Translations under genes and position numbers: made by a program
Shown here: positions 2-51,902 of the stretch, in pieces
How positions within the stretch are numbered: position 1 is the stretch's first letter
How the letters are laid out: the number at the start of each line of letters is the position of its first letter
Notes under the pieces: generated by a model
What the model was told of the DNA's origin: nothing
Seen by the model: only the letters and a program-made list of their open reading frames with translations
Database searches by the model: none
From: a virus
Taxonomy: Duplodnaviria > Heunggongvirae > Uroviricota > Caudoviricetes
IMG/VR virus record: IMGVR_UViG_2778261152_000005
Span: 1 to 57,958 of that record
Direction: 5' to 3' (one strand)
DNA length: 57,958 nt

Positions 2-1366
2 ACCACGCACCGCCCCGCCACCCTTCAGCACCTGCGTATCGGTGCCGACCAGAGCGGGAAAATCACAGCTATCTCACATGAAAGCTGGTCCGGAAACCTG
101 CCCGGCGGCACGCCGGAAACGGCGGTACAGCAAAGCGAATTACTCTACGCCGGGGCAAACCGTCATACCGGCCTGCGGCTCGCCACGCTTGATTTGCCGG
201 AAGGGAACGCCATGCGTGCGCCCGGCGAAGCCCCCGGTCTGATGGCGCTCGAAATCGCGATCGACGAACTGGCGGAAAAAGCGGGCATCGATCCCGTCGA
301 GTTTCGCATCCTGAATGACACTCAGGTTGACCCCGCCGACCCGACGCGCTGCTTCTCTCGCCGTCAGCTTATCGAGTGCTTGCGCACCGGAGCGGATAAA
401 TTTGGCTGGAAGCAGCGCAACGCCACACCCGGACAGGTGCGCGACGGGGAGTGGCTAGTCGGCCACGGTGTTGCGGCGGGCTTTCGCAATAATCTGCTGG
501 AAAAATCGGGTGCTCGGGTTCACCTCGAACAAAACGGCACCGTTACCGTAGAAACGGACATGACCGACATTGGCACCGGCAGCTACACCATTCTGGCCCA
601 GACGGCAGCGGAAATGCTTGGCGTACCGCTGGAGCAGGTTGCGGTTCACCTCGGCGATTCCAGTTTCCCGGTTTCTGCGGGTTCTGGTGGACAATGGGGC
701 GCGAATACCTCCACCTCCGGCGTTTACGCCGCCTGTATGAAGCTTCGCGAAATGATTGCCTCGGCAGTCGGGTTTGATCCTGAGCAGTCGCAGTTTGCCG
801 ACGGCAAGATTACCAACGGTACCCGAAGCGCCACGCTACATGAAGCCACCGCAGGCGGCAGACTGACAGCGGAAGAGAGCATTGAATTCGGAACACTGAG
901 CAAAGAGTACCAGCAGTCGACCTTTGCCGGGCATTTTGTGGAGGTCGGCGTGCATAGCGCGACGGGAGAAGTTCGGGTCCGGCGTATGCTCGCTGTGTGT
1001 GCTGCAGGACGCATCCTGAATCCGAAAACTGCGCGCAGCCAGGTCATTGGCGCAATGACTATGGGCATGGGCGCGGCACTGATGGAGGAGCTGGCGGTGG
1101 ATGACCGTTTGGGCTACTTCGTTAATCACGATATGGCGGGGTATGAGGTGCCGGTTCATGCGGATATCCCAAAACAGGAGGTGATTTTCCTGGATGATAC
1201 CGACCCCATATCCTCCCCGATGAAGGCCAAAGGTGTCGGTGAGCTGGGCCTGTGCGGCGTGAGCGCGGCTATCGCCAACGCGGTGTATAACGCCACCGGT
1301 ATTCGGGTACGGGATTATCCCATCACTCTGGATAAGCTGCTCGATAAGCTGCCGGATGTGGTTTAA
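2..1366 (+). CDS. paoC: aldehyde oxidoreductase molybdopterin-binding subunit PaoC (YagR), C-terminal part; 5' end lies outside the window
   Basis: Frame 2 is open from nt 2, with no stop before the first listed Met at 194. The C-terminus is of the xanthine-dehydrogenase/aldehyde-oxidase Mo-binding type (…KAKGVGELGLCGVSAAIANAVYNATGIRVRDYPITLDKLL…). An XdhC-like gene follows 9 nt later, as in E. coli paoC-paoD. Confidence 0.85.
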   Translation, partial: TTHRPATLQHLRIGADQSGKITAISHESWSGNLPGGTPETAVQQSELLYAGANRHTGLRLATLDLPEGNAMRAPGEAPGLMALEIAIDELAEKAGIDPVEFRILNDTQVDPADPTRCFSRRQLIECLRTGADKFGWKQRNATPGQVRDGEWLVGHGVAAGFRNNLLEKSGARVHLEQNGTVTVETDMTDIGTGSYTILAQTAAEMLGVPLEQVAVHLGDSSFPVSAGSGGQWGANTSTSGVYAACMKLREMIASAVGFDPEQSQFADGKITNGTRSATLHEATAGGRLTAEESIEFGTLSKEYQQSTFAGHFVEVGVHSATGEVRVRRMLAVCAAGRILNPKTARSQVIGAMTMGMGAALMEELAVDDRLGYFVNHDMAGYEVPVHADIPKQEVIFLDDTDPISSPMKAKGVGELGLCGVSAAIANAVYNATGIRVRDYPITLDKLLDKLPDVV

Positions 1367-2873: not shown

Positions 2874-3008
2874 TCGATTAATCTCGTGTTAATGCCATCA
2901 CCTACGACCATTACTAATTGATTGAATCTTATAGAAAAATCATCATTTTCTATGCGTCACAATCAATTTTCACATTACAAACGCTCCGACACTTTAGCCG
3001 GAGATTTT

Positions 3009-4286
3009 ATGAGATACAAGCCTAACCAATACTTAATCTGTGATTCTTACGGTAACTACTATTTAAGGATAACGCTGCCTGTGTATATGCAGCCCTTTTT
3101 TGAAGGAAAAAGGACGTTTGTCAGAAGTCTACACACAAGTAATCTTCGTGTTGCACGTAGAAAGCGTGATCAGATTGCAGATGAATACCATTGCTTACGG
3201 GAGAGTGTCGCCCCTGTAAACAGCACAATAGAAAACACGCTGGAACTGTTACGCAGTAAGGCTAAATACGCCAAAACAGCTACCAGAATGCAAGATACAG
3301 CGTCTTCGTGTCCGTCATTGCTTAAAATTCTTGAAATCTACCTGACAATTAACAGCACGAAGAAGAAGCCAGCCACTTTAGCTAAGGCAAGAAAAGCGGT
3401 AGAGATGTTTCTCTCCTACCGTAAAAAGCCTGATATTGCATTGCAAGATGTAAGCCGCACCACTGTTACAGGCTGGATTGAACACATGCAAAAAACCCTT
3501 TCACAACAATCAATTGCAAATTATATCAGCCCAATGGCCCAGCTATGGGAATTAGCTTCATCACGTTACCACGATGCGCCAGAAAGGGCGCTCTCCCCCT
3601 GGCGAGGGCATAGGCTTGATGTGGCACAAAGTAGAGAGAGCTACGAGGCATTTTCTAACAAAGAGCTATTGCAGGTGTTGCAAGTATTTTCCGGTGATTC
3701 AGCAGAAAACAAAGAAATGATGGCTTTGTGTCTTATCGGTGCCTATACAGGTATGCGGATCAATGAGATAGCAAGTCTCACAATAGACGATGTGAAAGAG
3801 ATCGAAGGTGTGCTGTGTTTTGAAATCACACAGGGAAAGACGAAAGCAGCGGCACGTGTTGTGCCTGTACATAGCCTTATCACTCCGTTGGTGTTGTCGC
3901 TGCGTGAAAAGCCTCACAATGGCTTTTTGTTCTATCACGCCAGCATTACAGAGCGTGCTGATGGTAAACGTTCCACGTGGCATACGCAGAGATTTACAAG
4001 AGCTAAACGAAAGGCTTTAGGGGAAAAGGGAACAGAAAGGAAAGTGTTTCATTCTCTGAGACACGGAGTAGCACAGCTTCTTGATCGAAATCAAATTCCA
4101 GAAGACAGGATCGCCCTTCTCCTGGGCCATACACGCGGCAATACAGAAACATTCCGCACATATAGCAAGAATGCAGCTTCTCCAGTAGAGCTTAAAAAAT
4201 ATATTGAGCTTTTACGCTACCCTGAAATAGAGAAAGGCTTATCAATCAATAAAAAATCAAATTTAAGGCGTAAAACAACACTGTAG
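3009..4286 (+). CDS. tyrosine recombinase / phage integrase of element A
   Basis: The C-terminal catalytic signature is present: …GMRINEIASL… (Arg), HSLRHGVAQLL (HxxR), LLGHTRGN (His), FRTY (Tyr). An ATG at 3009 has a GGAG SD 5 nt upstream. The ORF track extends to a TTG at 2922. The gene sits next to att copy 1. Confidence 0.85.
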   Translation: MRYKPNQYLICDSYGNYYLRITLPVYMQPFFEGKRTFVRSLHTSNLRVARRKRDQIADEYHCLRESVAPVNSTIENTLELLRSKAKYAKTATRMQDTASSCPSLLKILEIYLTINSTKKKPATLAKARKAVEMFLSYRKKPDIALQDVSRTTVTGWIEHMQKTLSQQSIANYISPMAQLWELASSRYHDAPERALSPWRGHRLDVAQSRESYEAFSNKELLQVLQVFSGDSAENKEMMALCLIGAYTGMRINEIASLTIDDVKEIEGVLCFEITQGKTKAAARVVPVHSLITPLVLSLREKPHNGFLFYHASITERADGKRSTWHTQRFTRAKRKALGEKGTERKVFHSLRHGVAQLLDRNQIPEDRIALLLGHTRGNTETFRTYSKNAASPVELKKYIELLRYPEIEKGLSINKKSNLRRKTTL

Positions 4287-4366: not shown

Positions 4367-5044
4367 CTATTGTTTAAATACTGGCGTTACAACGTCTTGC
4401 CCTGGGCTTTTTTGATTTTTCTGTTCTGTTGTATTTACCTGCATTTTAACCTGTCCCCCTACAGATTTATTTGGTGCTGTTTTTACCGCAATTGCGCTTG
4501 TAGTTGCTTTAGAGACAAGACGGATTTGCTCAAAATCAAGAGTAAACAATAGGCTTTCGCTTGCTTCTTCTGCGTAAGACATGCCAACTAACACAACGTT
4601 GTCATAATTTTTTAACTCAGTGACAAGTAGGAAAGGTTGGCGACTGTCCATCAACTGATTTAGGTATTCAAGCATAAGCATACGTCGATTGCCGTTAATT
4701 CCCGCATTCTTAATCATATCGGGATTGAGCTTCAATACGGTTTCAGAGATACGCCCTTGTAATGTGAACTTGTTATTCCGTATTTGAACATGATCACTAA
4801 CTTCTGATCCTGATTCGACGGCATAGCTTGTAACGTCTGCATTTCGGCTAACTTTCGTCGATTCCACGCTATCAAATGATAATGCCTGGTAGTCATTGTA
4901 AGCAGCATTTGCACCACTGCCGAGGTTAGAGGTAATGATCGCAAAGCCGTTACCCCCTTTAGTTGTTCTACCGTTGCTATCGTTGCTTGTGCTGTTGATT
5001 TTCGCCTCAGTCGGGCGACCAATGGTTAACGGACCCATTGCCAT
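4367..5044 (-). CDS. putative tail/baseplate (Dit-like) virion protein
   Basis: 225-aa ORF immediately downstream of the tape-measure-like gene. The motif …VTSYAVESGSEVSDHVQIRNNKFTLQGRISE… resembles the conserved core of small phage distal-tail/baseplate proteins. This rests on memory of the family only. Confidence 0.4.
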   Translation of the reverse strand: MAMGPLTIGRPTEAKINSTSNDSNGRTTKGGNGFAIITSNLGSGANAAYNDYQALSFDSVESTKVSRNADVTSYAVESGSEVSDHVQIRNNKFTLQGRISETVLKLNPDMIKNAGINGNRRMLMLEYLNQLMDSRQPFLLVTELKNYDNVVLVGMSYAEEASESLLFTLDFEQIRLVSKATTSAIAVKTAPNKSVGGQVKMQVNTTEQKNQKSPGQDVVTPVFKQ

Positions 5045-12982: not shown

Positions 12983-13119
12983 TAACAAAATTCTGTAGGG
13001 GTGGCTAACAGTTTTCTGTGGGGGTGTCTAACATAATTCTGTTAGGGTTGGGGTAACAGTTTTCTGTTAGGGTGCATATTTCTTTAAAAGTTAAGGATAA
13101 CAGAATTCTGTGGGGGTAG
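12983..13119 (+). repeat. five direct iterons, putative replication origin of element A
   Basis: taacaaaattctgtaggggt, taacagttttctgtgggggt, taacataattctgttagggt, taacagttttctgttagggt and taacagaattctgtgggggt start at 12983, 13006, 13029, 13054 and 13098. The first four are spaced 23-25 bp apart, with a 44-bp gap before the last. Confidence 0.7.
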
Positions 13120-13671: not shown

Positions 13672-14229
13672 ATGAAAATGGCTAATATTGGATACATTAG
13701 GGTATCGACTGTCCAACAAAACACAGACCGTCAATTAGCTGGAGTAACTCTTGATAAAGTCTTTGAAGATAAAGCGTCAGGCAAGAATACCCAGCGCCCA
13801 CAGTTTGAGGCAATGATGAACTATGTGCGTGAAGGTGATGTTTTGCATGTTCACAGCATTGATCGACTTTGCCGTAATACAGCCGACCTACTGGCAACGG
13901 TTGAGCAATTAACAGAGCGCGGCGTGTCTGTGCATTTCCATAAAGAAGACTTTAAGACAGGGAAGAACTCTCCCGCAGGGAATATGATGCTCACAGTGCT
14001 TGCAGCAGTGGCACAAATGGAACGTGAAATGATGCTTGAGCGGCAACGTGAAGGGATCGCCGCAGCTAAGGCCGCTGGACGTATAGCAAAACGTGGTAAT
14101 GGAAAAGCAATTGATCGAGCGGGAATTGTTGCCGCTCTCGCGAATGGTGGATCAATTCGGAGCGTAGCAAAAGATTTCAGTGTCAGCACACAGACGGTGC
14201 AACGTATCAAGAAAGAGCAGGAAGCGTAA
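13672..14229 (+). CDS. small serine recombinase (resolvase/invertase family)
   Basis: 185 aa. The N-terminal catalytic motif IGYIRVSTVQQNTDRQ (Ser nucleophile) and a C-terminal HTH (SIRSVAKDFSVSTQTVQRIKK) are present. A ggaa SD lies upstream. Confidence 0.9.
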   Translation: MKMANIGYIRVSTVQQNTDRQLAGVTLDKVFEDKASGKNTQRPQFEAMMNYVREGDVLHVHSIDRLCRNTADLLATVEQLTERGVSVHFHKEDFKTGKNSPAGNMMLTVLAAVAQMEREMMLERQREGIAAAKAAGRIAKRGNGKAIDRAGIVAALANGGSIRSVAKDFSVSTQTVQRIKKEQEA

Positions 14230-36378: not shown

Positions 36379-36558
36379 TGTAACCACCTGTAACCACTGT
36401 AACCACCATCTTCTTAACCTTTCCCTGAACGACTTATATATATATATGGGGTTTTTAGAAAATAGGTGGTTACAGTGGTTACAGTGGTTACAACCCTTTA
36501 AATTCAATTAGTTAAAGCGTAACCACCTAAGCGTTGTAGGTGGTTACAGGTGGTTACA
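36379..36558. promoter_or_regulatory. putative replication origin of prophage B: nine copies of a 9-mer around a (TA)n unwinding element
   Basis: TGTAACCAC occurs three times (36379-36406). tatatatatatat follows at 36435-36447. GTGGTTACA, the inverted form, occurs three times (36466-36492). gtaaccac is at 36519. GTGGTTACA occurs twice more (36540-36558). The region sits at the 3' end of the primase-helicase gene. Confidence 0.65.
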
Positions 36559-38721
36559 CAGATACCCAAACGCGTTGCACTTTGCCGTTAACACGCCTCA
36601 AAACTCGCGAATAGCCGCAATTTTGCAAAACATTGCTAATTCGCATTTCTTCACGTTTTCCGATGTGGCTGGGATTTAAGCCAATCGCATCGCGCAGGAC
36701 GTCACTAGCGCGTAAAAATTCGCAATTTCGCGGAATGTCGTTAGTCATCAGGTCTGGAGTGTCGAGCCATTTCTCTACCGTTTCGAGCCACGCATCCTTA
36801 ATGGTGTACTGCTCGTGGACACTCGCACCGAGCCGCTCAGCGTCGCGGAACTGGATACCGCCGAGGCGCTTAAACGTCTCGCGAGCCTCAGCCCACAGCA
36901 GCAGCAAATCGCGCTTAATGGCCTGCACATCGACTTTCGACACCTCAACGGGCAACCATCGGCGGTTACCGGTCTTGTCCGCGAGGAACTCATCCTCGTT
37001 GGTGGTACCGACGAACACCAGGCGACGCGGGAACTGCGTGGCGAACTCCCGGTATTTGGGGATCCAGTTCTCATGCGTACGCGTCACGAATGCCTTGATG
37101 GATTCCAGCTCTTTGGTATTGAGGCCGCGCAGCTCGCCAATCTCAGCCACCAGGCGCCCGCGCATCTTGCGTGCGAGATCGTCGTCTTTCTCAGCGAAAG
37201 AAATCTCAGTGAAGAACGCCGGATCGGGGCTCAGCGCTTCCACGCCGGAGGATTTACCGCAGCCCTGCGGACCGACGAGGATCGGCACCATATCGGCTTT
37301 AACTCCGGGCTCCAGCACCCTGCCCGCCAGCGCAGTCCACATGTACATGGATACTGCGCGGGTGTATGGCGTGTCGGCGGTACCGAAGTGCGTATGGTAG
37401 AAAGTTTCGATACGCGGTACGCCGTCCCACTCCAGCCCGTTCAGCCAGGTTGTCGCCGAGTCAAACGGCTGTTCGTCAGCAGCCAGCAGCACCACGTCGC
37501 GAATGAGCTCGCGCCCCACAGGTTTAAAGCCGCGCTTTTCCATCGTGATGCGCAGGCGCGCATAGTCCGCATCGGTGAACGCCTGCCACTGGCCGGAGCC
37601 TGCCGGGGCGAACATGATTTCGTCGCGGAACTGGTCAAAGCGGATATCTATGTCCACAAAGTCAGGACGCACAACGGCTTTGGCCGCGTTGCTGATAGTA
37701 GCCTCGATGCGGCCCCACTTATCGCGTTCGAACGCCGGCAGCGGTAACGGCTCGGCCACTTCGGTGCTGGTCAGGTCTTCGAAATCGTCGTTACGAATAC
37801 CGATGGCGTTAAGGAAATCGCCGTCATCGCGGTGCGCACAGCTGGCGTGCAGGCACTTGAAATGGCCCTGCTCAAAGCCCGCGGTACCGCCCGGGAAGTA
37901 AACTGTGCTCGTCGGGTCGCCGCCGGTGCTGTGGCCGTCTTCGAACGGGCAGCGGATGTATCGCTCGCCGTTCGCACCATCAAGCAGCGTCCAGCCATTG
38001 GCATCGAGGTATTCCGCCGTATCGTCCGTGGCACCGGGCGTGAAGGTTGAACGGTCGCGCATCTTCGTGCTGCCCGCTTCGGTGGTGACTGACACAGGCA
38101 GCTGTTCCGCCAGGCGCTGCCACAGCGTTTCGAGCTGGTCAGCAGTTATGGCTGGAGGCTCGCCCGGCAGACCGCCGTCCCATTCAATACGCGCGCCGCT
38201 GCTATGCGTACCACAGGCAACGAACTGCTGCCCGTTCGCCAGCAGCTCGATAATCCCCATATCACCCGCCAGACGGTGGATGCGCTTACGGAAATCGCCG
38301 TCAACGGCCAGCAGGTACAGGCATTTGTTGCTGTTGGCGCGCCAGCGACGCGGCGGCAGCTCGCCCAGCGCTGCACCAGCGTTTTGCGAATATCGGCCTG
38401 GACGTCTTCGTCTTCGCTGTCGCAGTCCAGCGCAAGCCAGCCATGACCTGTACGCACGCAGATGCCGTAATCCGGTTCGTTTGACCAGCGGGCAAAGTCA
38501 TGCTCAGTGACTACATGCTCGGTCCAGTCTTTAATCCCGGTAGCCAGGCGGTCGCGGTTATACAGGCTCGGCGTTTTGCCGAGCATTTTGAGTTTGCTAT
38601 TCGGGGATATGGTAGCGCCCGGGTTGCACATGACCGGCAGCAGCTGGTCAGTACGCCCCAGCACCAGATCGAAGTGGAACCATTCGTCAGGCGTCGCCCC
38701 CCAGATCTTTTTCTCTGGCAT
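36554..38721 (-). pseudogene. bifunctional primase-polymerase / D5-VirE-type helicase, disrupted by a frameshift near 38368-38376
   Basis: The N-terminal prim-pol ORF (38146-38721) reads sensibly to …DVQADIRKTLVQ and then becomes nonsense. The sensible continuation …ALGELPPRRWRANSNKCLYLLAVDGDFRKRIHRLAGDMGIIELLANGQQFVACGTH… lies in another frame, that of ORF 36554-38260. That ORF carries the Walker A GPQGCGKSS. Adding one nucleotide in gtgcagcgctgg would restore a single ORF. Confidence 0.7.
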
Positions 38722-38724
38722 GGG

Positions 38725-38937
38725 TTACGCCTTTTTATCGTTTTGTGAGCCGTGCAGCAGCCAGTTGGGGTCGCAATCAAGCGCAACGGAAATTTCAAGA
38801 AGATAACGCGGGCGGGAGATAACACCACTTTCGATCCTGTTGATGGCCTGCTGACTAACCCCTGTTAGCTCAGCCAGCGTGACCTGCGTCATTTTGAGTT
38901 CCTTACGTCGCTCTTTTAATCGGGTAGCCAGAGTCAT
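38725..38937 (-). CDS. Cro-like XRE-family HTH regulator
   Basis: 70 aa from the ATG at 38937, with a GAGG SD. The HTH is MTQVTLAELTGVSQQAINRIESG. It is divergent from the S24 repressor gene. The track ORF starts at a TTG at 38955. Confidence 0.75.
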   Translation of the reverse strand: MTLATRLKERRKELKMTQVTLAELTGVSQQAINRIESGVISRPRYLLEISVALDCDPNWLLHGSQNDKKA

Positions 38938-38964
38938 AGTTATTACCTCATACAATTTTAGTGG

Positions 38965-39033
38965 TATTTAGCAACAACTAATGGTGTTTGTCAAATACAA
39001 CAAAAATTGTATTTAATAGAGGAAGGCTATAAT
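38965..39033. promoter_or_regulatory. divergent promoters and palindromic operator of the immunity switch
   Basis: The minus strand carries TTGACA (38989-38994), 18 nt, then TAAATA (38965-38970). The plus strand carries a perfect TATAAT (39028-39033). The palindrome aaatacaa-caaaaa-ttgtattt (38993-39014) overlaps both -35 regions. Confidence 0.55.
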
Positions 39034-39057
39034 TTCAACTCATACAAGGTATTAAAA

Positions 39058-39681
39058 ATGTCTCTCTCAGCACGCTTTAAAGCCCGCCGTCTCGAACTAG
39101 GAATGACACAAGTAGAGGTCGCAAACGCTGCGGGGGTTAGCCAACAATCTATCGAGTCAATCGAAAGCGGAAGAACTCGAAAGCCACGTAACCTTTTAGA
39201 CCTGGCTAAAGCGTTAAAATGTAGCCCGGACTGGCTTCTGAATGGTAAAAACATCATGCCACTCACTGAGATCAGCACCCGAAGAATCCCTGTATTGAGT
39301 TATGTACAGGCTGGCTGCTTAACTGAAGCAAGGGAAGTTACCGATCTGACTGGGGATTTCGAGTATGTACTGGCAGACTCCGACGTACCAGAGACATGCT
39401 TCGCGCTGCGCATTGATGGTGACAGTATGCAGCCAGAATTTAAGGAAGGGGATATTGTAATTATTGACCCTGACTTATGCCCCACACCTGGAGAATTTGT
39501 CGTTGCCAAGAATGGCGGCCACGAAGCGACTTTCAAAAAGTATCGTCCTTTAGGGATTGGCATAGACGACTTCGAACTGGTGCCACTTAATCCTGACTAT
39601 CCGGTTTTACGTAGCGCCGACATGAAGTTGCAAATCATCGGGGTGATGATTGAGCACCGCATTTACCGCCGTAAACGCTAA
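39058..39681 (+). CDS. CI/LexA-like repressor (XRE HTH plus S24 autopeptidase domain)
   Basis: The HTH is MTQVEVANAAGVSQQSIESIESG. A VQAG cleavage-site-like motif is present. The S24 core is …LRIDGDSMQPEFKEGDIVIIDPD… with a downstream Lys (FKKY). The start is taken at the ATG at 39058; the track starts at a TTG at 39007. Confidence 0.85.
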   Translation: MSLSARFKARRLELGMTQVEVANAAGVSQQSIESIESGRTRKPRNLLDLAKALKCSPDWLLNGKNIMPLTEISTRRIPVLSYVQAGCLTEAREVTDLTGDFEYVLADSDVPETCFALRIDGDSMQPEFKEGDIVIIDPDLCPTPGEFVVAKNGGHEATFKKYRPLGIGIDDFELVPLNPDYPVLRSADMKLQIIGVMIEHRIYRRKR

Positions 39682-39697
39682 CAACCCTACCTTCTCA

Positions 39698-39716
39698 GGA
39701 GAGCCAATGGCTCTCC
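39698..39716 (+). terminator. stem-loop after the repressor gene
   Basis: ggagagcc-aat-ggctctcc lies 17 nt after the repressor stop. The U-tract is weak. Confidence 0.4.
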
Positions 39717-39768
39717 CCTATCTTACTTGTAAAATCTTACCAACTAAATTCATTTAAATATCAATAAG

Positions 39769-39841
39769 GTGGTATTCCTTTACTGAAAAATACCACATTT
39801 GTGGTTTACACAATACAACTCAAATTGTAGATTTAACCACA
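39769..39841 (+). promoter_or_regulatory. nested inverted repeats upstream of the early rightward operon
   Basis: gtggtatt-N12-aataccac (39769-39796) and tgtggtt…aaccaca (39800-39841) enclose acaat…attgt. The gtggtatt half-site also occurs at 38962-38969 in the switch region. Confidence 0.4.
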
Positions 39842-40110
39842 AGTCGAACGGCGCGACTCTAAACCATGCGTCGGAACCGTGGCGGGACAGGATGTCGGCA
39901 ATACGGGTTAGTGAATTAATCAAAGGCTTCGGGCCTTTTACTAATCCACTGAATGAGGCCACTCCTATGAGCAAACAAGAGTTAATCGGCTTTCTGATGA
40001 ACCGCTACAACGTTTCCTGGCGTGTGGCAGAAGATGCTTTAAGAGATAACGACTGGGGTCTGATGATGGCCGCCGGCGATATTCGCGACGAGCTGGCCGC
40101 CGAAGTTTAA
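39799..40110 (+). CDS. hypothetical small protein (start uncertain; likely 39892 or 39967)
   Basis: Only the C-terminal ~48 aa (MSKQELIGFLMNRYNVSWRVAEDALRDNDWGLMMAAGDIRDELAAEV) look protein-like, with a UBA/TS-N-like pattern. The 5' part overlaps the inverted repeats. Confidence 0.4.
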   Translation: MWFTQYNSNCRFNHKSNGATLNHASEPWRDRMSAIRVSELIKGFGPFTNPLNEATPMSKQELIGFLMNRYNVSWRVAEDALRDNDWGLMMAAGDIRDELAAEV

Positions 40111-40230
40111 CCATCCCCTGAATCATCCATTGCTGTGTGTAGTCTTTGCCCGCCTCCCATGACGGGCTTTTTTATACCTGAAAGCGCATTCAGTGCAGTG
40201 CGTTCCCCGACATGAAAAGGAGCACCACCG

Positions 40231-40377
40231 ATGAAACCTGAACACCTCCACCGGCTGACGGGGCGCGACGTGCTCCTTTATCGCCGAAAACAATTCGACA
40301 TCTTCACCGGTCTGGCCCTCGCTACTGCGTTCGGCCTGGCTATTACCTTCATTCTCCTTGTAGCGAGGACTGCTTAA
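40231..40377 (+). CDS. small membrane protein (48 aa), translationally coupled to the repeat protein
   Basis: MKPEHLHRLTGRDVLLYRRKQFDIFTGLALATAFGLAITFILLVARTA. An aaaaggag SD lies upstream. Its TAA overlaps the next ATG (TAATG). It is not in the track because it is under 60 aa. Confidence 0.55.
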   Translation: MKPEHLHRLTGRDVLLYRRKQFDIFTGLALATAFGLAITFILLVARTA

Positions 40378-41072
40378 TGCAAATCACCAAAGAACAAGTA
40401 AAAGCCTGGCATGCCTGTACTGATGGCTTCCGCTGGTTTCTGGATAAATTCCCGCAGGGCGGTGCGTATGCCGATGTGCATGGTGCACTGATCGCCGATA
40501 AGCGTTTCGATGACGCGCGCTGGCTGGTCGATAAGATGTACCGCACGCATCTGGATAAAGCTGAATTCATTCAGGCTGAAACTGCTACGACCGACAAAAT
40601 GGTCGGTGAACTCACCAGCATGGAACTTCCATCTGATCAGGAAGAGGGTGAGAACAGCTCCGGCAACTACGCCCGAATCGGCAGCTCCGGCTACGACGCC
40701 CGAATCGGCAGCTCCGGCTACGACGCCCGAATCGGCAGCTCCGGCAACTACGCCCGAATCGGCAGCTCCGGCTACGACGCCCGAATCGGCAGCTCCGGCG
40801 ACGACGCCCAAATCGGCAGCTCCGGCAACTACGCCCGAATCGGCAGCTCCGGCTACAACGCCCAAATCACCGCATCAGGTAAAGGCTCCGTTGTGGCTTG
40901 TGCCGGTAGCGTGCAGCGCATTGTTCTGGGCGAAAACGGCTGTGCATCAGTGCCGTGGCACGACGGGAAACGAACCCGCATTGCAGTGGCTTACGTCGGC
41001 GAGAACGGCATTGAAGCAAACGCCCCATATTACGTGAACGACGAAGGCCAGTTCGTCAAGGTTGAGGATTAA
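40377..41072 (+). CDS. hypothetical protein with eight tandem 9-aa SSG(N/Y/D)(Y/D/N)A(R/Q)IG repeats
   Basis: 231 aa. It has an N-terminal Cys/Trp motif domain (KAWHACTDGFRWFLDKFPQGG…), a central perfect-period repeat, and a C-terminal region (…VACAGSVQRIVLGENGCASVPWHDGKRTRIAVAYVGENGIEANAPYYV…). Confidence 0.65.
   Translation: MQITKEQVKAWHACTDGFRWFLDKFPQGGAYADVHGALIADKRFDDARWLVDKMYRTHLDKAEFIQAETATTDKMVGELTSMELPSDQEEGENSSGNYARIGSSGYDARIGSSGYDARIGSSGNYARIGSSGYDARIGSSGDDAQIGSSGNYARIGSSGYNAQITASGKGSVVACAGSVQRIVLGENGCASVPWHDGKRTRIAVAYVGENGIEANAPYYVNDEGQFVKVED
40656..40871 (+). repeat. 27-bp tandem repeat, 8 units, in frame within the CDS
   Basis: The unit agctccggc(aac/tac/gac)(tac/gac/aac)gccc(g/a)aatcggc is repeated head to tail. 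It generates the spurious antisense ORF 40374-40865. Confidence 0.9.
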
Positions 41073-41075
41073 TCC

Positions 41076-42011
41076 ATGAGCTTAGAAGCAAATCTCGAAC
41101 TTAACAACAAACTGCTGACGCAGCAGAACGAGCTGCAGGTGCGTAATATCGCTCTGCTGGAACAACTGGTGCAGTCCCTGACCTCTGGTGCATCACTGAG
41201 CGCCAGCACACCATTGCAGGTGCAGGAGTACCACGAATCAGCATCGGATACGGCCAAAGAGCAGACAAAAGCGCTGACGCTGGACGATCTGCAGTTTAGT
41301 GATGTTATCGCGATGGCCGGCTTCTACCCGGTGGCTAAACCTATTACCGCAGAAATGCTGCAACGCGCTATCGATTACCGCGATGCTGAAGGCGATAAGC
41401 GAGTCGTACAAATTGACGCTCTGGATTGCGCTTTGCAAGGGGTGAAGCGTGCAAAAGAACTCCATCAGCCCGCGCTGCTGGATCTCTCCCGTCATATTCT
41501 TAGTTGTTGGGACGATTTACCCACTATCGAATCCCGTCGTGACTTTGCCGAACGACTGCTGAATACGCCAAACGGCGAAAGGCATACGGTTCAGCCGAAA
41601 AAGGTCAACGGAAAAGGCCAACAAGCAGAAGAACGCTCCGGGCCGTTCTACTGCAAGAACGCCGATGGTTCCGCCGCCAGCGAACTCCATACCTTACGCA
41701 AGCTGAACGAGCTGCTTAAAAAGGGCCATATCGAGATCAACCGCGTTGAGTATCTCCAACTGCAGGAAGAATTCGCGCGTAAAGATGCAGCAAACAGCGG
41801 TAAGGATAAAGACGCCGGAACGGATGATACTCCTGATTTTTCTGCACTGCGTAAACAGGCTGAAGGGTTGATCCTCCAGTTGGCGAAGGGTGGTTACCGT
41901 GCCGAGGCTGTGGCGATTCTGGAGAAACAGGGAGCCAAAAAACTCGGCGAAGTTGCTGACGAGAATCTCGCAGACGTTATCGCTCAGGCTGAAAAAGCAC
42001 TGGAGGGTTAA
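41076..42011 (+). CDS. hypothetical protein
   Basis: 311-aa ORF, 3 nt after the previous stop and 2 nt before the next start. It is helical and charged with no recognisable motif. Confidence 0.6.
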
Positions 42012-42013
42012 TT

Positions 42014-43315
42014 ATGCCAGACGTTCACGCACGACTTTCACCGTCTTCAGCGCATCGGTGGATGCGTTGCCCCGGTAGCCTGGCGCTGGAAGCCACTCAG
42101 CCAGACAAAGAAACGTCCTTCGCTTTAGAAGGTACCGCAGCGCATTCGCTTGCCGAAAAGGTGCTGCGCAACCGCCAGAATCACCCGGAACACTATGCGG
42201 GTTGCAATGTAGCGATGTTTCTCGGTTCTTATCCTCTTGCCGAGCTCCCGGATGATACTTCCAGCCCGCAGGTAGATGAGGAAATGGTCGAAGCCGTTGG
42301 CCGTTACGTCGACACCGTCTGGACGCTGTCGCAGGGTCATGAGCTCCTGGTCGAGCAGCGTGTCGACTTCTCCCACATCGTGGGGGTCGAAGAATCATTC
42401 GGCACCGCTGACGGCGTAATCATCGCAGGTAACGAGCTGCAGATCCACGACCTGAAATATGGTAAGGGTGTGCGGGTCGATGCCGAGCAGAACGAGCAGC
42501 TGCAGCTCTATGCTCTGGGCGCGCTTGAGCAGTTCAGCATGCTGTACGACTTTGAAACGGTGCGTCTGTTCATCCACCAGCCACGACTTAACCACGTTTC
42601 AGAGTGGGCGCTGACGGTGGAAGAACTCCAGGCGTTCGGCGAACGGGCGCAGGAAGCGGCGGCTAATGTGATCGTGATGTTCAACATTGCCGATTGCGAA
42701 GGCGTCGAAACCCTGCCGCTGGAAAACTTCACTCCTGGTGAAAAACAGTGCCGGTTCTGCAAAGCCAAAGCCGTCTGCACTGCACAGAAAATGCAGCACA
42801 TGCAAACAGCTGCCGGCGAATTCGAAGATCTGACAAAACCGGTTAGCGAAATCGTCACTGATGCCAGCTCACGCGTACCACTACTCACCATAGAGGAACT
42901 GGCGGAGATCTACAGCCAGGCCGACGCTATCGAATCATGGCTAAAGGCTGTGCGCGACCGGGTGAACAGTGAGCTGAACGCCGGGCATCCGGTACCGGGC
43001 TTTAAGCTGGTTACTGGCAAACAGGGCAATCGTGCCTGGAGCGATGAAGAAGCCGCCCGCGCGCTGCTGAAAGACCAGTTCCGTTATAAAACTGAGGAGG
43101 TTTTCGACCTTAAGCTGATTAGCCCAACCAAAGCCGAGAAGCTCATCAAAAAGGCCAGCCCTCGCCGCTGGACAAAGGTCGAAGCGCTGATCACTCGCGC
43201 TGACGGAAAGCCCTCCGTTGCACCTGAATCCGACCCGCGCCCTGCGCTAAATATCAACCCTGTTAACGATTTCGACGACTTGTCCGACGACGCGCTCGCC
43301 GCAGACCTCATCTGA
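42014..43315 (+). CDS. PD-(D/E)xK Cas4-like nuclease (DUF2800-type) with Fe-S cysteines
   Basis: The N-terminus [26 protein letters not shown] is typical of DUF2800. The DxK-type core is …HDLKYGKG…. The Cys cluster is C…[10 protein letters not shown]. Confidence 0.7.
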
Positions 43316-43330
43316 TTAAGGAACGACTCC

Positions 43331-43879
43331 ATGAAAATTAAACTGAACAATGTCCGCCTGGCCTTCCCTGCTCTGTTTGAAGCAAAAACCGTGAACGGCG
43401 AAGGCGACCCGCGCTTCTCTGCTGTTTTCCTGATGGATCCGAAACATCCGCAACTGGATGAAGTCCGCAAAGCGCTTAAGCAGGTGGCGAAGGAAAAATG
43501 GGGTGAGAAGTGGGAAACCATTTACAACCAGCTGGAGAAAAAGCTCAACCTCTGCCTGCATGACGGTGACGAGAAAGCCGAATACGAAGGCTTCCCGGGT
43601 AACTTCTTCCTGAACGCTGCCAACAAAGCGCGCCCGGCGGTTATCGATCGCGACCGTTCTCCGCTAATCCAGGCTGATGGCCGTCCTTACGCCGGTTGCT
43701 ACGTCAACGCGGTGATCGACATCTGGGCGCAGGACAACAACTTCGGCAAACGTGTTAACGCATCGCTGGGTGGAGTCCAGTTCCTGCGCGACGGTGACGC
43801 CTTCGCTGGCGGCGGTGTTGCTGCCCCTGACGACTTCGACGACATCAGTGAAGGCGCTGACGCCGACGCACTTATTTAA
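43331..43879 (+). CDS. DUF2815-type putative ssDNA-binding protein
   Basis: 182 aa beginning MKIKLNNVRLAFPALFEAK… with an acidic C-terminal tail (DDFDDISEGADADALI). It occupies the conserved position between the DUF2800 nuclease and the polymerase. Confidence 0.6.
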   Translation: MKIKLNNVRLAFPALFEAKTVNGEGDPRFSAVFLMDPKHPQLDEVRKALKQVAKEKWGEKWETIYNQLEKKLNLCLHDGDEKAEYEGFPGNFFLNAANKARPAVIDRDRSPLIQADGRPYAGCYVNAVIDIWAQDNNFGKRVNASLGGVQFLRDGDAFAGGGVAAPDDFDDISEGADADALI

Positions 43880-44056: not shown

Positions 44057-44132
44057 TCCACACCCACCCGGCCATGCGCCGGGTGTTTTGCAAAGAGCCT
44101 CCCTTTTCGCAAAGCACCCGCGAGGAATATCT

Positions 44133-46199
44133 ATGCCTGAAACCATTCTCTGGGGCGACCTGGAAACCTATTGCGAGATACCCATCACGAACGGCACGCA
44201 CGCTTATGCGGAAGGTGTCGAAGTGATGTTGTTTGCCTGGGCCATCGGCGACGAGCCGGTTAGCGTCTGGGATCTGATTGCTGGCGAACCTATCCCCAGC
44301 AGGCTGCGGAAGGCCATTGCCGATCCCGACACTCTGCTTTATTTCCACAATTCACATTTTGACCGTACGGTGCTGCGCCATGCAATGCCGGAGCTGGCGC
44401 CGGACGTTACCCGCTGGCACGACACGATGGTGCAGGCGCTGGCGCACAGCCTCCCCGGCGCGCTGGGGGCACTCTGTGAGGTGCTGGGCGTACCGCAGGA
44501 CAAGGCGAAGGACAAAGAAGGTAAAGCACTGATTCAGCTGTTCTGTAAGCCACGTCCGAAGAACAGCAAGCTGCGCCGCGCAACCAGCAAAACGCACCCG
44601 GTAGAGTGGCAGAGGTTCGTTGCCTACGCCGGGCTGGATATCGAGGCGATGCGCGAAGTTTATAAGCGGCTACCGAAGTGGAACTATCAGGGCGCCGAGC
44701 TGGCGTTATGGCATCGTGACCAGCGGATCAACGACCGCGGCGTATGCATGGATGTGCAGCTCGCACAGGCCGCCATCGAAGCGGTAGACCTTGAACAGAA
44801 AAGGCTGGCAAAGCGCACGCAGGTGATGACCGACGGCGAAGTACAGGCGGCCACACAGCGCGATGCGATGATTAAGCACATTGTCGAATCGTACGGCGTC
44901 GAGCTGCCGGATATGCAGCGCAGCACGCTGGAACGTCGCATCGCCGACCCTGACCTGCCGTCACCGGTGAAAGAGCTGCTGGCTATCCGCCTGCAGGCCA
45001 GCACCACGAGCACCAGTAAGTACAAATCGCTGATGAAGGGTATCAGCAGCGACGGGCGTCTGCGCGGTACGCTGCAATTCTGCGGCGCATCGCGTACCGG
45101 GCGCTGGGCCGGGCGGTTATTCCAGCCCCAGAACCTGCCCCGCCCGACGCTTGAGCAGGAACGCATCGATGAAGGCATCGAGGCGCTTAAATCCGGCTGC
45201 GCCGATCTGCTTTTCGATAATGTCATGGAGCTGACCAGTTCGGCGCTGCGCGGTTGCATTATGGCGCCGGCGGGTAAAAAGCTGGTTGTATCTGACCTGT
45301 CGAACATCGAAGGCCGAAAGCTGGCCTGGCTTGCCGGTGAGCAGTGGAAACTTGACGCATTCCGGCAGTACGACGAGGGCACTGGCCCCGACCTTTATAA
45401 GCTGGCCTACGCCAAAGCATTCAACATCACCCCGGAAGAAGTGACCAAATATCAGCGCCAGATAGGCAAGGTGATGGAACTGGGCCTCGGGTTTGGTGGA
45501 GGTGTCGCGGCGTTCCTGACCTTCGCACTGGTTTACGGCCTCGATCTTGAGGAACTGGCAACCGCAGCGCTGCCGAATATCCCGCGCGATGTGCGGCGCG
45601 AGGCTCAGAGCTGGTATGACGAATCGGTTAAACGCAAAGCGACGTATGGGCTATCGGAGCGCGTATTCATCGCTTGCGATTCGCTTAAGCGCCTGTGGCG
45701 CCGGGCACACCCGAAAACCTGCGATTTCTGGTACCAACTCGAGCGCACTGTCCGTGCCGCTATTGTCACCCCTAAGAAAACACTCTATTGCGGCTATCTG
45801 AAAGTGCGCCGCGATGGCGCATGGCTGCGTATCCAGTTGCCGTCCGGGCGCGCACTCTGCTACCCGTCGCCGTCGATTGAGAAAGGAAATATCACCTACA
45901 TGGGGATTAACTCCTACTCGCGGAAATGGCAACGGCTCAAAACCTACGGCGGAAAGCTGGTCGAAAACGTAACACAGGCCGCCGCCCGCGACGTTCTGGC
46001 CGGGAACATGCCGCTGATCGAGGATGCCGGTTACAGCATTGTGCTGACGGTACACGATGAAGTGATCACCGAAGCGCCGGACACTGACGATTTCAACGAT
46101 AAAGCACTCTCCGCGCTGCTCTCCACTAACCCCGAATGGGCGCCCGATATCCCGCTGAACGCTGGCGGCTTCGAGGCGTATCACTACCGTAAGGATTAA
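44133..46199 (+). CDS. family A DNA polymerase with 3'-5' exonuclease domain
   Basis: ExoI is WGDLETY. Motif A is [11 protein letters not shown]. Motif B is [16 protein letters not shown]. Motif C is LTVHDEV. The ATG at 44133 has a GAGGAA SD; the track ORF starts at 44088. Confidence 0.85.
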
Positions 46200-49202: not shown

Positions 49203-49387
49203 CACCGGTTATCTCTGACACTGACCTGATTAACATCAAAGAGGTTGAGCGCTCTGTTGGCCTGAAAAAATCCAGCATTTATGAGCGCATCAGTAATAAC
49301 GAGTTTCCGAAGCCTAAGAAGCTCGGGAGCCGAACCTCCCGCTGGGTACGCGGCGAGGTCGAAGAGTGGAAAAAACAGTTTCTTTAA
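49199..49387 (+). CDS. AlpA-family HTH protein (excisionase/regulator)
   Basis: 62 aa: MTPVISDTDLINIKEVERSVGLKKSSIYERISNNEFPKPKKLGSRTSRWVRGEVEEWKKQ. An ATGA overlap joins it to the helicase stop. It is convergent with the integrase. Confidence 0.75.
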   Translation: MTPVISDTDLINIKEVERSVGLKKSSIYERISNNEFPKPKKLGSRTSRWVRGEVEEWKKQFL

Positions 49388-50556
49388 ATCAAACGAAGCT
49401 GGTCAATATAATCCGCATACCACTGCATCATTTCCCGACGCCCTTCCATATACAGGGCATGGTTATAAACCCCGCGTATATTGTTCTTGTCCACGTGGGC
49501 GATCTGGAGTTCAACCCAGTCAGAGTTGAATCCTTTATCGTTCAGGATAGTGCTGAACGTATGCCGGAAGCCATGCCCTACTACCCTCCCCTTATACCCC
49601 AGCGTGTGGATCATCCTGTTTATTGTGTTCTCGCTCATGACCTTTGACGGGTCATTCCTGCCGGGGAACATATTCACGTATCGACCTGTCAGCCCGTGCA
49701 GTTCTTTTAGCAAGACGACAAGCTGATCGGAAAGAGGTACCAGGTGCGGGCGGTCCATCTTCATAAATTCGGCGGGTATCTCCCACAGCCGATTATCGAA
49801 ATCTACCCATTCCCATTTTGAATGCCGCAGTTCGTAAGTACGCAGCCCCGCCAGCATCATGATCTGCAACCCCAGCCGGGGCAGCGGGCTCCCCTTGTAA
49901 CTCTCAAGCGCCGCGAGAAAATCAGGCAGTTCCTCCGCCGTCAGGAACGGGAAGGACTCTCCTTTATGCCCGGTCATTGCGCTATTCAGTTCGCTGACGG
50001 GGTTATACTTCGCGCGCCCAGTCGCAACTGCATAGCTGAATACTTCACCGCACCACCGGCGCGTTTTGGCTGCTTTCTCGGTTGCGCCGCGATTCTCAAT
50101 TTTGCGCAGTGCCCTCAGCATCTGGACAGGCTCGATTTCAGCAACTGGCAGCTTACCCACCGCTGGGAAAATATCTTTGTTGAATGCTTCGAGAATGTCA
50201 GAGGCATAGCCAGGCGACCAGCGCGGCTTCTTGAATTCATGCCATTCTATCGCGATCTCTTTTAACGTGATCGTCTTTACTGCCGCAGCTGCGGCATGGC
50301 TTTTGACTTTTACCGGGTCAACACCTGCCGCAACGTTACGCCGGGCCTCGTCGCGTTTTTCGCGAGCGGCCGCCAGCGAAACAGCCGGGTATACCCCGAG
50401 CGCCAGCATCTTTTCTTTACCGGCGAAAGTATAGCGATAGCGCCAGTATTTTGCCCCGCTGGTTTTCACCAGCAGGATAAGCCCGTTGCCGTCTGGCAGC
50501 TTATAGTCTTTCTCGGCAGGCTTTGCCGTCTCGACCTGTCGCGCGTTTAGTTTCAT
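49384..50556 (-). CDS. P4-type tyrosine integrase of prophage B
   Basis: 390 aa from the ATG at 50556. It begins MKLNARQVETAKPAEKDYKLPDGNGLILLVKTSGAKYWRYRY…, the DUF4102-type arm-binding N-terminus. The catalytic signature is HGFRHTFST…QIAH…Y. The track ORF extends to 50646. Confidence 0.9.
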   Translation of the reverse strand: MKLNARQVETAKPAEKDYKLPDGNGLILLVKTSGAKYWRYRYTFAGKEKMLALGVYPAVSLAAAREKRDEARRNVAAGVDPVKVKSHAAAAAVKTITLKEIAIEWHEFKKPRWSPGYASDILEAFNKDIFPAVGKLPVAEIEPVQMLRALRKIENRGATEKAAKTRRWCGEVFSYAVATGRAKYNPVSELNSAMTGHKGESFPFLTAEELPDFLAALESYKGSPLPRLGLQIMMLAGLRTYELRHSKWEWVDFDNRLWEIPAEFMKMDRPHLVPLSDQLVVLLKELHGLTGRYVNMFPGRNDPSKVMSENTINRMIHTLGYKGRVVGHGFRHTFSTILNDKGFNSDWVELQIAHVDKNNIRGVYNHALYMEGRREMMQWYADYIDQLRLI

Positions 50557-50557
50557 A

Positions 50558-50601
50558 GGTACCCGCCTCAAACTCAGATACCCGATTATGTACCCGTTTT
50601 T
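50558..50601 (+). promoter_or_regulatory. arm-type integrase binding repeats (right arm) / int promoter region
   Basis: ggtacccgcc…gatacccgattatgtacccgttttt carries three (g/a)tacccg copies. It matches 15615-15638. Confidence 0.5.
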
Positions 50602-50709
50602 AATTTGGATTGCAACGGCAAAAGGTGGATTATGGCGGACAAACAAAACGCCTAATATGGCGAATTTAAAGGAAAAATGGAGGACTAAGGATGTTAGCGG
50701 ATTAAAAAA

Positions 50710-51204: not shown

Positions 51205-51480
51205 GTGGCTTCCATTTCCATCAGATGTCCTTCCTGCTCCGCTACTGAAGGCGTGGTGCGTAACGGCAAAAGCACTGCCGGACATCAGCGCTATCTCTGC
51301 TCTCATTGCCGTAAAACATGGCAACTACAGTTCACTTACACCGCCTCTCAGCCCGGTAAGCACCAGAAAATCATTGATATGGCCATGAATGGCGTCGGAT
51401 GTCGCGCCAGTGCACGCATTATGGGCGTTGGCCTCAACACGGTTTTACGTCACTTAAAAAACTCAGGCCGCAGTCGGTAA
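51205..51480 (+). CDS. insA: IS1 InsA
   Basis: 91 aa: [43 protein letters not shown]… (zinc finger plus HTH). Confidence 0.95.
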
Positions 51481-51902
51481 CCTCGCGCATACAACCGGGC
51501 AGTGATGTGATTGTCTGCGCTGAAATGGACGAACAGTGGGGCTACGTCGGTGCTAAATCACGTCAGCGCTGGCTGTTTTACGCGTATGACAGGATACGGA
51601 GGACGGTTGTGGCGCACGTCTTCGGTGAACGCACTCTGGCCACACTGGAGCGTCTTCTGAGCCTGCTGTCGGCCTTTGAGGTCGTGGTATGGATGACGGA
51701 TGGCTGGCCGCTGTATGAATCACGCCTGAAGGGAAAGCTGCACGTTATCAGCAAGCGTTATACTCAGCGCATTGAGCGACATAATCTGAATCTGAGACAA
51801 CATCTGGCAAGGCTGGGACGGAAGTCACTGTCGTTCTCAAAATCGGTGGAGTTGCATGACAAGGTCATCGGGCATTATCTGAACATAAAACACTATCAGT
51901 AA
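51399..51902 (+). CDS. insB: IS1 InsB' frame (expressed as InsAB' transposase by -1 frameshift at aaaaaac, 51456-51462)
   Basis: The 167-aa frame contains …[26 protein letters not shown]…[10 protein letters not shown]…, the DDE region. Confidence 0.95.

Follow-up and report, generated by a model that had tools for sequence, protein, structure and literature searches.

The window analysed here, a stretch of 57,958 nucleotides (positions 1 to 57,958 of IMG/VR virus record IMGVR_UViG_2778261152_000005, Caudoviricetes), includes a temperate prophage that encodes, close to its immunity region, a 231-amino-acid (aa) protein built around eight tandem 27-bp units. The protein is a further member of a catalogued, uncharacterised family, YdhT; its identity is ordinary, whereas its mode of evolution is unusual. 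Judging from comparison of arrays, the repeats are in a regime of concerted evolution with diversity kept at three residues per rung. Taken as a whole, the gene is read as an optional early-operon cassette for a YdhT-family beta-roll, which would act through a variable stripe as a binding protein in phage-host conflict; a probability of roughly 0.45 is assigned to this reading.

The YdhT-like protein and its repeat array

40231-40377, + strand: open reading frame (ORF) for a 48-aa membrane peptide (phrog_11981, E=2.8e-32; hydropathy), the conserved first gene of its operon, kept in relatives with and without the repeat gene
40377-41072, + strand: YdhT-family protein of 231 aa, with YdhT_N domain, linker, predicted eight-rung beta-roll and C-terminal cap
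aa 1-81 of the 231-aa protein (nt 40377-40619): helical YdhT_N domain
aa 94-165 of the 231-aa protein (nt 40656-40871): predicted eight-rung nonapeptide beta-roll
aa 166-231 of the 231-aa protein: C-terminal beta cap
40656-40871, + strand: eight 27-bp units forming the array, with variation only at nt 10, 13 and 20 of each (codons 4, 5 and 7)

An earlier note on this DNA had described an overlapping ORF pair, located after the immunity region and before the replication genes. Both the pair (40231-40377 and 40377-41072, + strand) and its position are confirmed, the LexA/S24-type repressor-like gene preceding it and exonuclease, annealing protein and polymerase genes lying beyond it. One base is common to the TAA of the peptide (40375-40377) and the ATG of the 231-aa ORF (40377-40379), giving TAATG. 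Tandem Repeats Finder reports the array at 40655-40868 (period 27, 7.9 copies, 92% matches, no indels, score 358), together with a period-81 solution at 96%. In register, the unit corresponds to AGCTCCGGC-NAC-NAC-GCC-CRA-ATCGGC in DNA and to SSG(N/Y/D)(Y/D/N)A(R/Q)IG in protein. Apart from ACC as the final codon of the last unit, the eight units differ at nt 10, 13 and 20 only. In the description of eight perfect repeats, "perfect" is therefore slightly overstated, five distinct unit sequences being present among the eight.

The 231-aa protein has neither a signal peptide nor a hydrophobic segment (19-residue hydropathy maximum 0.97). Its overall isoelectric point (pI) of 5.06 and a repeat region near neutral (pI 8.0) rule out the idea of a DNA mimic. 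The 48-aa peptide has a basic N-terminal half and a single hydrophobic stretch at about residues 24-45 (Kyte-Doolittle 19-residue mean up to 2.35).

The NCBIfam model NF007410 ('protein YdhT') matches the 231-aa protein with E=5.5e-69 and 232.7 bits; as this score lies below the equivalog cut-off of 300 bits, the protein is a homologue, not an equivalog, of Escherichia coli YdhT. Alignment with YdhT of E. coli K-12 (b1669; NF007410 / PRK09946; PF27195) is collinear and nearly full-length (BLASTP, 35% identity, E=2e-47, residues 1-228 of 231 against 1-269 of 270). Both proteins have the same three-part build, consisting of an N-domain with the W..AC.DG..WF...FP.GG motif, xxGxxAxI(G/A) nonapeptide repeats and a C-terminal beta domain of about 65 aa. 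Pfam PF27195 (YdhT_N) is precomputed on a 100%-identical protein (P0007) and on 120 of the 120 best homologues. The YdhT_N motif is conserved in a diverse alignment, in which L50 and G141 are the only invariant residues and the N-domain contains no conserved catalytic-looking ones. The K-12 gene is chromosomal, directly follows ydhYVWXU in the same orientation and contains about 14 degenerate repeats, whereas the phage copy has eight near-identical units, strain-variable in number, and belongs to a prophage early operon. NCBI already holds an identical protein under the name 'hypothetical protein'. The earlier statement that no function was recognised for the protein thus understates the record, as it belongs to a catalogued family.

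A search of 1.84 billion cluster representatives retrieved 1209 clusters (50% identity) at E<=0.001 and 421 at E<=1e-10, ranging from Enterobacteria to Bacteroidota, Clostridia, Saccharibacteria and many phages. Among the best 150 clusters, a simple motif screen assigned YdhT_N-like N-termini to 44 and DUF7666-like ones to 29; DUF7666 was confirmed by Pfam in sampled members. The DUF7666-repeat phage proteins (Pfam PF24703, uncharacterised) share with the YdhT-like protein the IGSSGxxA(R/Q/K) array, the C-terminal cap, the three variable positions and the location in phage early regions; they differ in their N-terminal domain and, in one scanned member, by an additional Macro domain. A common origin of YdhT_N and DUF7666 is unsupported (profile-profile comparison with hhalign, probability 1.5%). 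As the two domains are not detectably related, the repeat array and the C-terminal cap together constitute a mobile module. Literature searches found no functional study of YdhT or DUF7666. In Ralstonia phage Bakoly (L012, 3001-3807), YdhT_N is fused to a near-perfect hexapeptide array, GI(K/E)AG(E/C/W), with variation at fixed positions; the design of an N-domain followed by a homogenised solenoid with a variable stripe recurs here with another repeat type.

AlphaFold, supplied with 36 diverse homologues, produced a model with a predicted local distance difference test score (pLDDT) of 82.5 and a predicted template modelling score of 0.73; a shallow alignment of 20 close homologues gave an unusable one (pLDDT 53). 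The model contains helices over residues 5-81 (pLDDT >90 for most, declining toward the end), a four-residue strand (RIGS) once per nine residues, and a C-terminal beta domain with a pLDDT of about 94. The repeat region is predicted to form a two-sided parallel beta-roll of nonapeptide rungs, with about two rungs per turn, RTX-like in fold; the beta-solenoid suggested from the repeat period is thereby borne out at the level of the model, with one strand per nine residues. Foldseek found nothing below E=0.27 in the PDB, PDB sequence searches with the whole-family and N-domain profiles yielded nothing credible, and structural neighbours in BFVD were uncharacterised phage proteins throughout.

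The number of units varies from 4 to 15 among the 120 closest homologues, with protein lengths changing in 9-aa steps, and reaches 21 in Edwardsiella phage GF-2 and up to 26 in arrays of distant genomes, in agreement with the length polymorphism that had been expected. Different arrays are located between identical N- and C-flanks in 20 proteins. A laboratory evolution study of Serratia symbiotica reported a 54-bp deletion in a gene annotated ydhT_1, its coordinate (782,372) lying inside the mitomycin-inducible prophage interval of the same paper (PMC12505973); the deletion would correspond to the loss of two 27-bp units.

Variation within arrays was compared for 14 arrays (197 units) from Enterobacteria, Alphaproteobacteria, Alistipes, Clostridia, Saccharibacteria and metagenomic phages. 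Codons 4, 5 and 7 hold 299 of the 339 minor-allele unit-sites (88%), nt 10 being polymorphic in 14 of 14 arrays, and only 23 of the 339 fall on the third positions of the six conserved codons. At silent sites, lineages differ from one another but each array is homogenised internally: units of E. coli and Salmonella have identical DNA, Serratia has GCG in place of GCC in 15 of 15 units, and GF-2 has TCA in place of TCC in 21 of 21, together with the Arg codon CGT, not CGA. An array evolves as whole 27-bp units are gained, lost and shuffled, and this keeps its silent sites homogenised. The pairs of residues at positions 4-5 depart strongly from random expectation (YN, DD and NY at >2x the expected frequency; YD, DN and NN at about 0.1x) and are found in free combination with either R or Q at position 7. 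This conserved 'repeat-variable tri-residue' regime across phyla is noteworthy, as it is uncommon for arrays to be homogenised at silent sites and variable at the same three codons in each lineage examined. In the predicted fold, positions 4 and 5 would be located in a turn and position 7 on the strand, so that all three should be surface-exposed and form a solvent-exposed stripe.

A target of a diversity-generating retroelement is not indicated, because no reverse-transcriptase domain is present among the reported Pfam/PHROG matches of the scanned ORFs of at least 150 aa; the remaining adenines of the unit do not vary, and variation restricted to nt 10, 13 and 20 is not an adenine-specific pattern. 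In Trabulsiella guamensis (L019/L020), two draft-assembly contigs stop within the array of the homologue. Such arrays seem to interrupt short-read assemblies, and draft-genome copy numbers may therefore be unreliable or under-sampled.

Cassette, putative control region and cargo slot

38725-38955, - strand: cro-like gene (helix-turn-helix, HTH)
38950-38967 and 38995-39012: two operator-like 18-bp palindromes, ATACAAY-N4-RTTGTAT, between the cro-like and repressor-like genes (repeat search; putative operators)
39058-39681, + strand: LexA/S24-type (CI-like) repressor-like gene (phrog_4 transcriptional repressor, E=2.6e-51)
39805-39833, + strand: sigma-70-like promoter, TTTACA-17-TAGATT, with a third palindrome copy (39813-39830) in the spacer; proposed to be PL-like
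39922-39939: hairpin/T-run structure between the proposed promoter and the peptide gene
39967-40110, + strand: 47-aa ORF, called in L008, with a weak match to phrog_14709, in the variable slot that runs from the repressor gene to the RprA-like element
40073-40177, + strand: RprA-like small RNA (sRNA) 3' module with intrinsic terminator (stem 40148-40152 / 40163-40167, T-run 40168-40173), 55 nt upstream of the peptide gene
41076-42011, + strand: conserved 311-aa protein (phrog_6784), whose ATG overlaps the peptide stop in relatives without the cassette

The 231-aa gene is wedged between its neighbours, with a 1-nt overlap upstream and a 3-nt gap downstream. In three annotated E. coli relatives (L001-L003) and in the isolated phage vB_EcoM-606R2 it is missing, and the peptide is joined directly to a gene for a protein of about 300 aa, the stop of the former overlapping the ATG of the latter as GTATGA. 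The region is matched by 81 complete E. coli genomes, and coverage amounts to at least 80% of the query in 0 of the 81. Blastn of the 231-aa gene alone against 5,426 complete E. coli genomes gave no match, neither the cassette nor chromosomal ydhT being detectable, and megablast of 39700-42100 found nothing in phage records and only one 189-bp match in plasmids. The slot is filled, in the same gene order, in Salmonella (one allele, 241 contigs), Serratia proteamaculans and one E. coli draft assembly, the last encoding a protein identical to the 231-aa protein. A GAGGA Shine-Dalgarno sequence embedded in the last codons of the peptide (40365-40369) serves whichever gene comes next, and a second GAGGA (41064-41068), supplied by the cassette, serves the 311-aa gene. 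On the basis of gene order, the repeat gene can be described as an optional cassette of about 0.7 kb.

Since the peptide is coupled to the gene for the protein of about 300 aa when the cassette is absent, peptide and repeat protein are neighbours and no dedicated pair. The coupling to a membrane peptide, from which an envelope role had been deduced, is not specific, because the same peptide overlaps that other gene in the three E. coli relatives and vB_EcoM-606R2; an obligatory peptide-YdhT partnership is ruled out by comparative gene order. A small hydrophobic peptide is encoded upstream of the homologue in two of six other contexts (L015 and L018) and in none of GF-2, Komagataeibacter phage phiKX1, L014 and L017. 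The membrane peptide would thus represent an independent neighbour, not a partner.

The palindrome ATACAAY-N4-RTTGTAT occurs three times in the 58-kb window, on each occasion within the immunity region, versus 0.71 expected. A promoter scan of 38500-42200 revealed 39805-39833 as the only sigma-70-like site, and consensus scans found no own promoter-like or + strand terminator-like site within or flanking 40231-41075. The repressor-like gene likely starts at ATG 39058 (mechanical ORF start, TTG 39007); its 207-aa product, as called in L008, which carries the identical protein P0007, contains HTH and Peptidase_S24 domains. In relatives with other immunity regions, motifs of at least 9 nt likewise recur on either side of the repressor gene, in the interval that separates it from cro and again downstream of it; for most of these relatives, the shared motifs are different from those of the window. 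In lambda, cI is followed by PL/OL and the early-left operon. The layout of the window matches this order by analogy, and the operon with the 231-aa gene would therefore, by implication, be repressed in the lysogen. The arrangement of promoter and operators thus points to early lytic, not lysogenic, expression of the 231-aa gene, which is considered fairly probable.

The settings of the homologues are similar. In GF-2, the homologue (21 units, annotated as 'collagen-like') comes immediately behind the annotated N antiterminator in the early-left operon; in phiKX1 it comes after the antirepressor; distant family members are located in early/regulatory regions near methyltransferases, ParB, primase-helicase or HTH regulators. 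Among lambdoid phages, lambda ral is a promoter-proximal early gene after N. The GF-2 homologue occupies a comparable place as first gene after N, and the gene of the window would be the second in its PL-like operon. This likeness is positional only, similarity in sequence or fold between Ral and the YdhT-like protein not being expected.

The moron-like variable cargo slot is the interval from the repressor gene to the RprA-like element, not the position of the YdhT-like gene. In the window it contains the 47-aa ORF (39967-40110), flanked by two hairpin/T-run structures, while a 175-aa gene is found there in Salmonella L005 and a reverse-strand 189-aa gene in phage 606R2. The RprA-like element matches Rfam RF00034 (RprA) over its full length, below threshold (53.7 bits versus a gathering score of 70; E=2.7e-6 to 5.8e-6). 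Its 3' half, made up of the core ATTGCTGTGTGTAGTCTTTGCCC and the terminator, is identical to K-12 rprA, and the 5' half is not conserved. The element is kept in six of six prophage relatives, including Salmonella and Serratia, with differing terminator-stem sequences. It may constitute a prophage-borne RprA-like Hfq sRNA module or a mimic of one, at the 3' end of the cargo-slot transcript; a limited literature search found no report of such a prophage element. The gene map of this prophage family is thus corrected by a probable PL-like promoter, the actual cargo slot and a conserved RprA-like RNA module.

Possible functions of the YdhT-like protein

As to function, the tentative preference, at odds clearly short of even, is for a cytoplasmic protein that is expressed early and takes part in phage-host conflict by binding through its variable stripe. 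The cassette would be located at the promoter-proximal end of an apparently repressor-controlled, lambda PL-like early operon of the temperate prophage, and its cytoplasmic product would be made immediately after induction or infection. The variable stripe might bind a target of the host or of a rival element, in anti-defence, host takeover or as a decoy, and the composition and number of rungs could set specificity and reach. This role is favoured because of the promoter-proximal early position in three unrelated temperate phage types, the accessory status of the gene, the fast turnover of the array versus its conserved flanks, and the joining of the same module to DUF7666 and Macro domains. 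DUF7666/Macro-type domain combinations are familiar from phage counter-defence proteins. If the stripe is an early-infection binding surface, the family would represent a new class of rapidly re-targetable phage effectors and could provide a compact engineerable scaffold.

Several observations weigh against a role in conflict. No experiment or annotation was found that assigns a function to any family member, the BFVD neighbours all being 'uncharacterized'. The location of chromosomal ydhT downstream of ydhYVWXU and its degenerate repeats point to a housekeeping, non-conflict role for at least one member. Transcription from the proposed promoter would meet the hairpin/T-runs at 39922-39939 and 40148-40173 before reaching the gene, and expression would therefore require read-through or antitermination. 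That positions 4, 5 and 7 are exposed is a deduction from alternation along the strand (6 and 8 inward, 5 and 7 outward) and from the DSSP string, not from coordinates. One Salmonella allele is identical on 241 contigs, so that arrays are stable within clones, and the diversity within arrays could partly reflect shuffling of a few ancestral unit types instead of ongoing selection.

The earlier note had proposed a lysogen-expressed moron of two genes, in which the membrane peptide and the repeat protein together exclude phages or defend the lysogen at the envelope. The pair adjoins the immunity region, the cassette is present or absent among relatives, and the small hydrophobic peptides of L015 and L018 lie directly upstream of distant family members. 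In addition, a machine-learning study (PMC12579225) includes ydhT in its list of pangenome gene clusters that predict infection by one phage, a finding that could equally reflect prophage presence. However, in relatives without the repeat gene the peptide persists and is coupled to whichever gene comes next, and homologues in GF-2, phiKX1, L014 and L017 have no membrane peptide upstream. Moron status is contradicted by the lack of an own promoter or terminator in the scanned interval, by the tight junctions on both sides, and by the operator-bearing promoter-like site and two terminator-like hairpins upstream. As for an envelope function, the 231-aa protein shows no signal peptide or hydrophobic segment, and PADLOC-DB v2 gave no match for either protein at E<=0.1. 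Such a moron is therefore regarded as unlikely.

Doubtful to a somewhat greater degree is a replication or recombination accessory, in which the beta-roll would serve as scaffold or spacer for the exonuclease, annealing-protein and polymerase machinery. The gene lies within the replication-recombination operon and is probably translated together with it, and the GF-2 homologue resides in an early-left operon that also holds a recombination gene. Nevertheless, the gene is dispensable, being absent from the E. coli prophage relatives and from vB_EcoM-606R2, a member of the same family deposited as a complete phage genome. The replication modules alongside the homologues are unrelated (lambda-type O/P in GF-2, RepB-primase/DnaB in L017, ParB in L015), and the N-domain is devoid of conserved catalytic-looking residues, with L50 and G141 alone invariant.

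By analogy with TALE or PUF proteins, each rung could read one unit of a periodic polymer (nucleic acid, glycan or a cross-beta surface) through its tri-residue, recombination re-programming the array. The repeats are near-identical and vary at two adjacent residues and a third in each lineage examined, and the small, non-random di-residue repertoire is freely combined with R/Q/K. The residues used at the variable positions (N, D, Y, S, H, G, R, Q and K) are typical of base- or sugar-contacting codes. TAL-effector repeats are likewise near-identical in DNA, vary in two adjacent residues and differ in the number and order of units, and in TAL effectors a similar evolutionary regime marked a specificity code. 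They differ in being alpha-solenoids of 34-residue units, as opposed to a beta-roll of 9-residue ones, and homology is not claimed. The analogy comes with no known ligand or code. Pfam, NCBIfam and PDB profile searches detected no nucleic-acid-binding domain, the repeat region is near neutral, and the arrays are short (4-15 rungs over two faces). Moreover, the rung spacing of a beta-roll, about 4.8 A, does not match B-DNA. Polymer reading is accordingly judged improbable. Only marginally better rated is the broader notion of the YdhT/DUF7666-type beta-roll as a programmable recognition scaffold, with one tri-residue (4, 5, 7) per ligand unit, deployed by phages at the start of infection.

Least credible is a secreted Ca2+-binding RTX-type or collagen-like surface protein, as implied by database names such as 'collagen-like protein', a reading already largely refuted by motif tests. 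The 231-aa protein resembles RTX proteins (Bordetella CyaA RTX blocks; PF00353 HemolysinCabind) in its predicted parallel beta-roll, but Pfam HemolysinCabind gave no match at E<=1, and the unit GSSGxxAxI departs from the Ca2+-binding GGxGxDxUx, with D at position 6 in some rungs only and hydrophobic residues at 7 and 9, not 8. No sign of a type-I secretion setting was noted; the adjacent genes serve phage replication, and the locus is an early operon, neither structural nor dedicated to secretion. The protein has no signal peptide. It is probably cytoplasmic, so that calcium-dependent folding is unlikely. Pfam Collagen (PF01391) scores 18.1 bits versus a cut-off of 27.2, and the GXY period is absent, the repeat period being 9 and Gly not occupying each third residue.

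Prophage setting and other elements of the window

194-1366: host molybdopterin oxidoreductase gene
2922-4286: second integrase, left of the T7-type prophage
4367-5044: Dit-like tail protein, left of the T7-type prophage
36554-38721, - strand: VapE-type primase/helicase gene, split, with a break near 38368-38371
42014-43315, + strand: DUF2800/PD-(D/E)XK exonuclease (PHROG; Pfam labels in L008)
43331-43879, + strand: Gp2.5-like single-stranded DNA-binding/annealing protein (PHROG; Pfam labels in L008)
44088-46199, + strand: family-A DNA polymerase (PHROG; Pfam labels in L008)
49384-50646: integrase of the T7-type prophage
51399-51902: IS1 transposase, right of the T7-type prophage

The structural genes of the prophage are T7-type and comprise a connector (PHROG head-tail adaptor; Pfam Head-tail_con on the same gene in L008), nozzle, capsid, tail-fibre N-domain and terminase. 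Leftward genes encode the cro-like HTH protein and the VapE primase; the rightward order is repressor-like gene, 47-aa ORF, 48-aa peptide, YdhT-like gene, 311-aa protein, DUF2800 exonuclease, Gp2.5-like annealing protein and PolA. In the VapE-type gene, residues 1-117 and 119-728 of an intact 730-aa homologue are encoded in different reading frames, representing either a frameshift (the prophage being possibly replication-defective) or a sequencing error.

At 36379-36407, a short distance downstream of the primase gene, TGTAACCAC(C) is repeated three times in tandem; about 60 bp further on, at 36466-36492, the complementary GTGGTTACA follows in three perfect copies. The arrangement looks like iterons or an origin. 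The second integrase, the Dit-like protein and a serine resolvase/invertase (13672-14229) on the left of the prophage, with IS1 on its right, make the window seem a mosaic of mobile elements beside a host gene. About 600 bp upstream of the resolvase/invertase gene, a 23/48-bp tandem repeat at 12983-13074 (TTCTGTTAGGGGTGGCTAACAGTT-like) could be a recombination or binding site.

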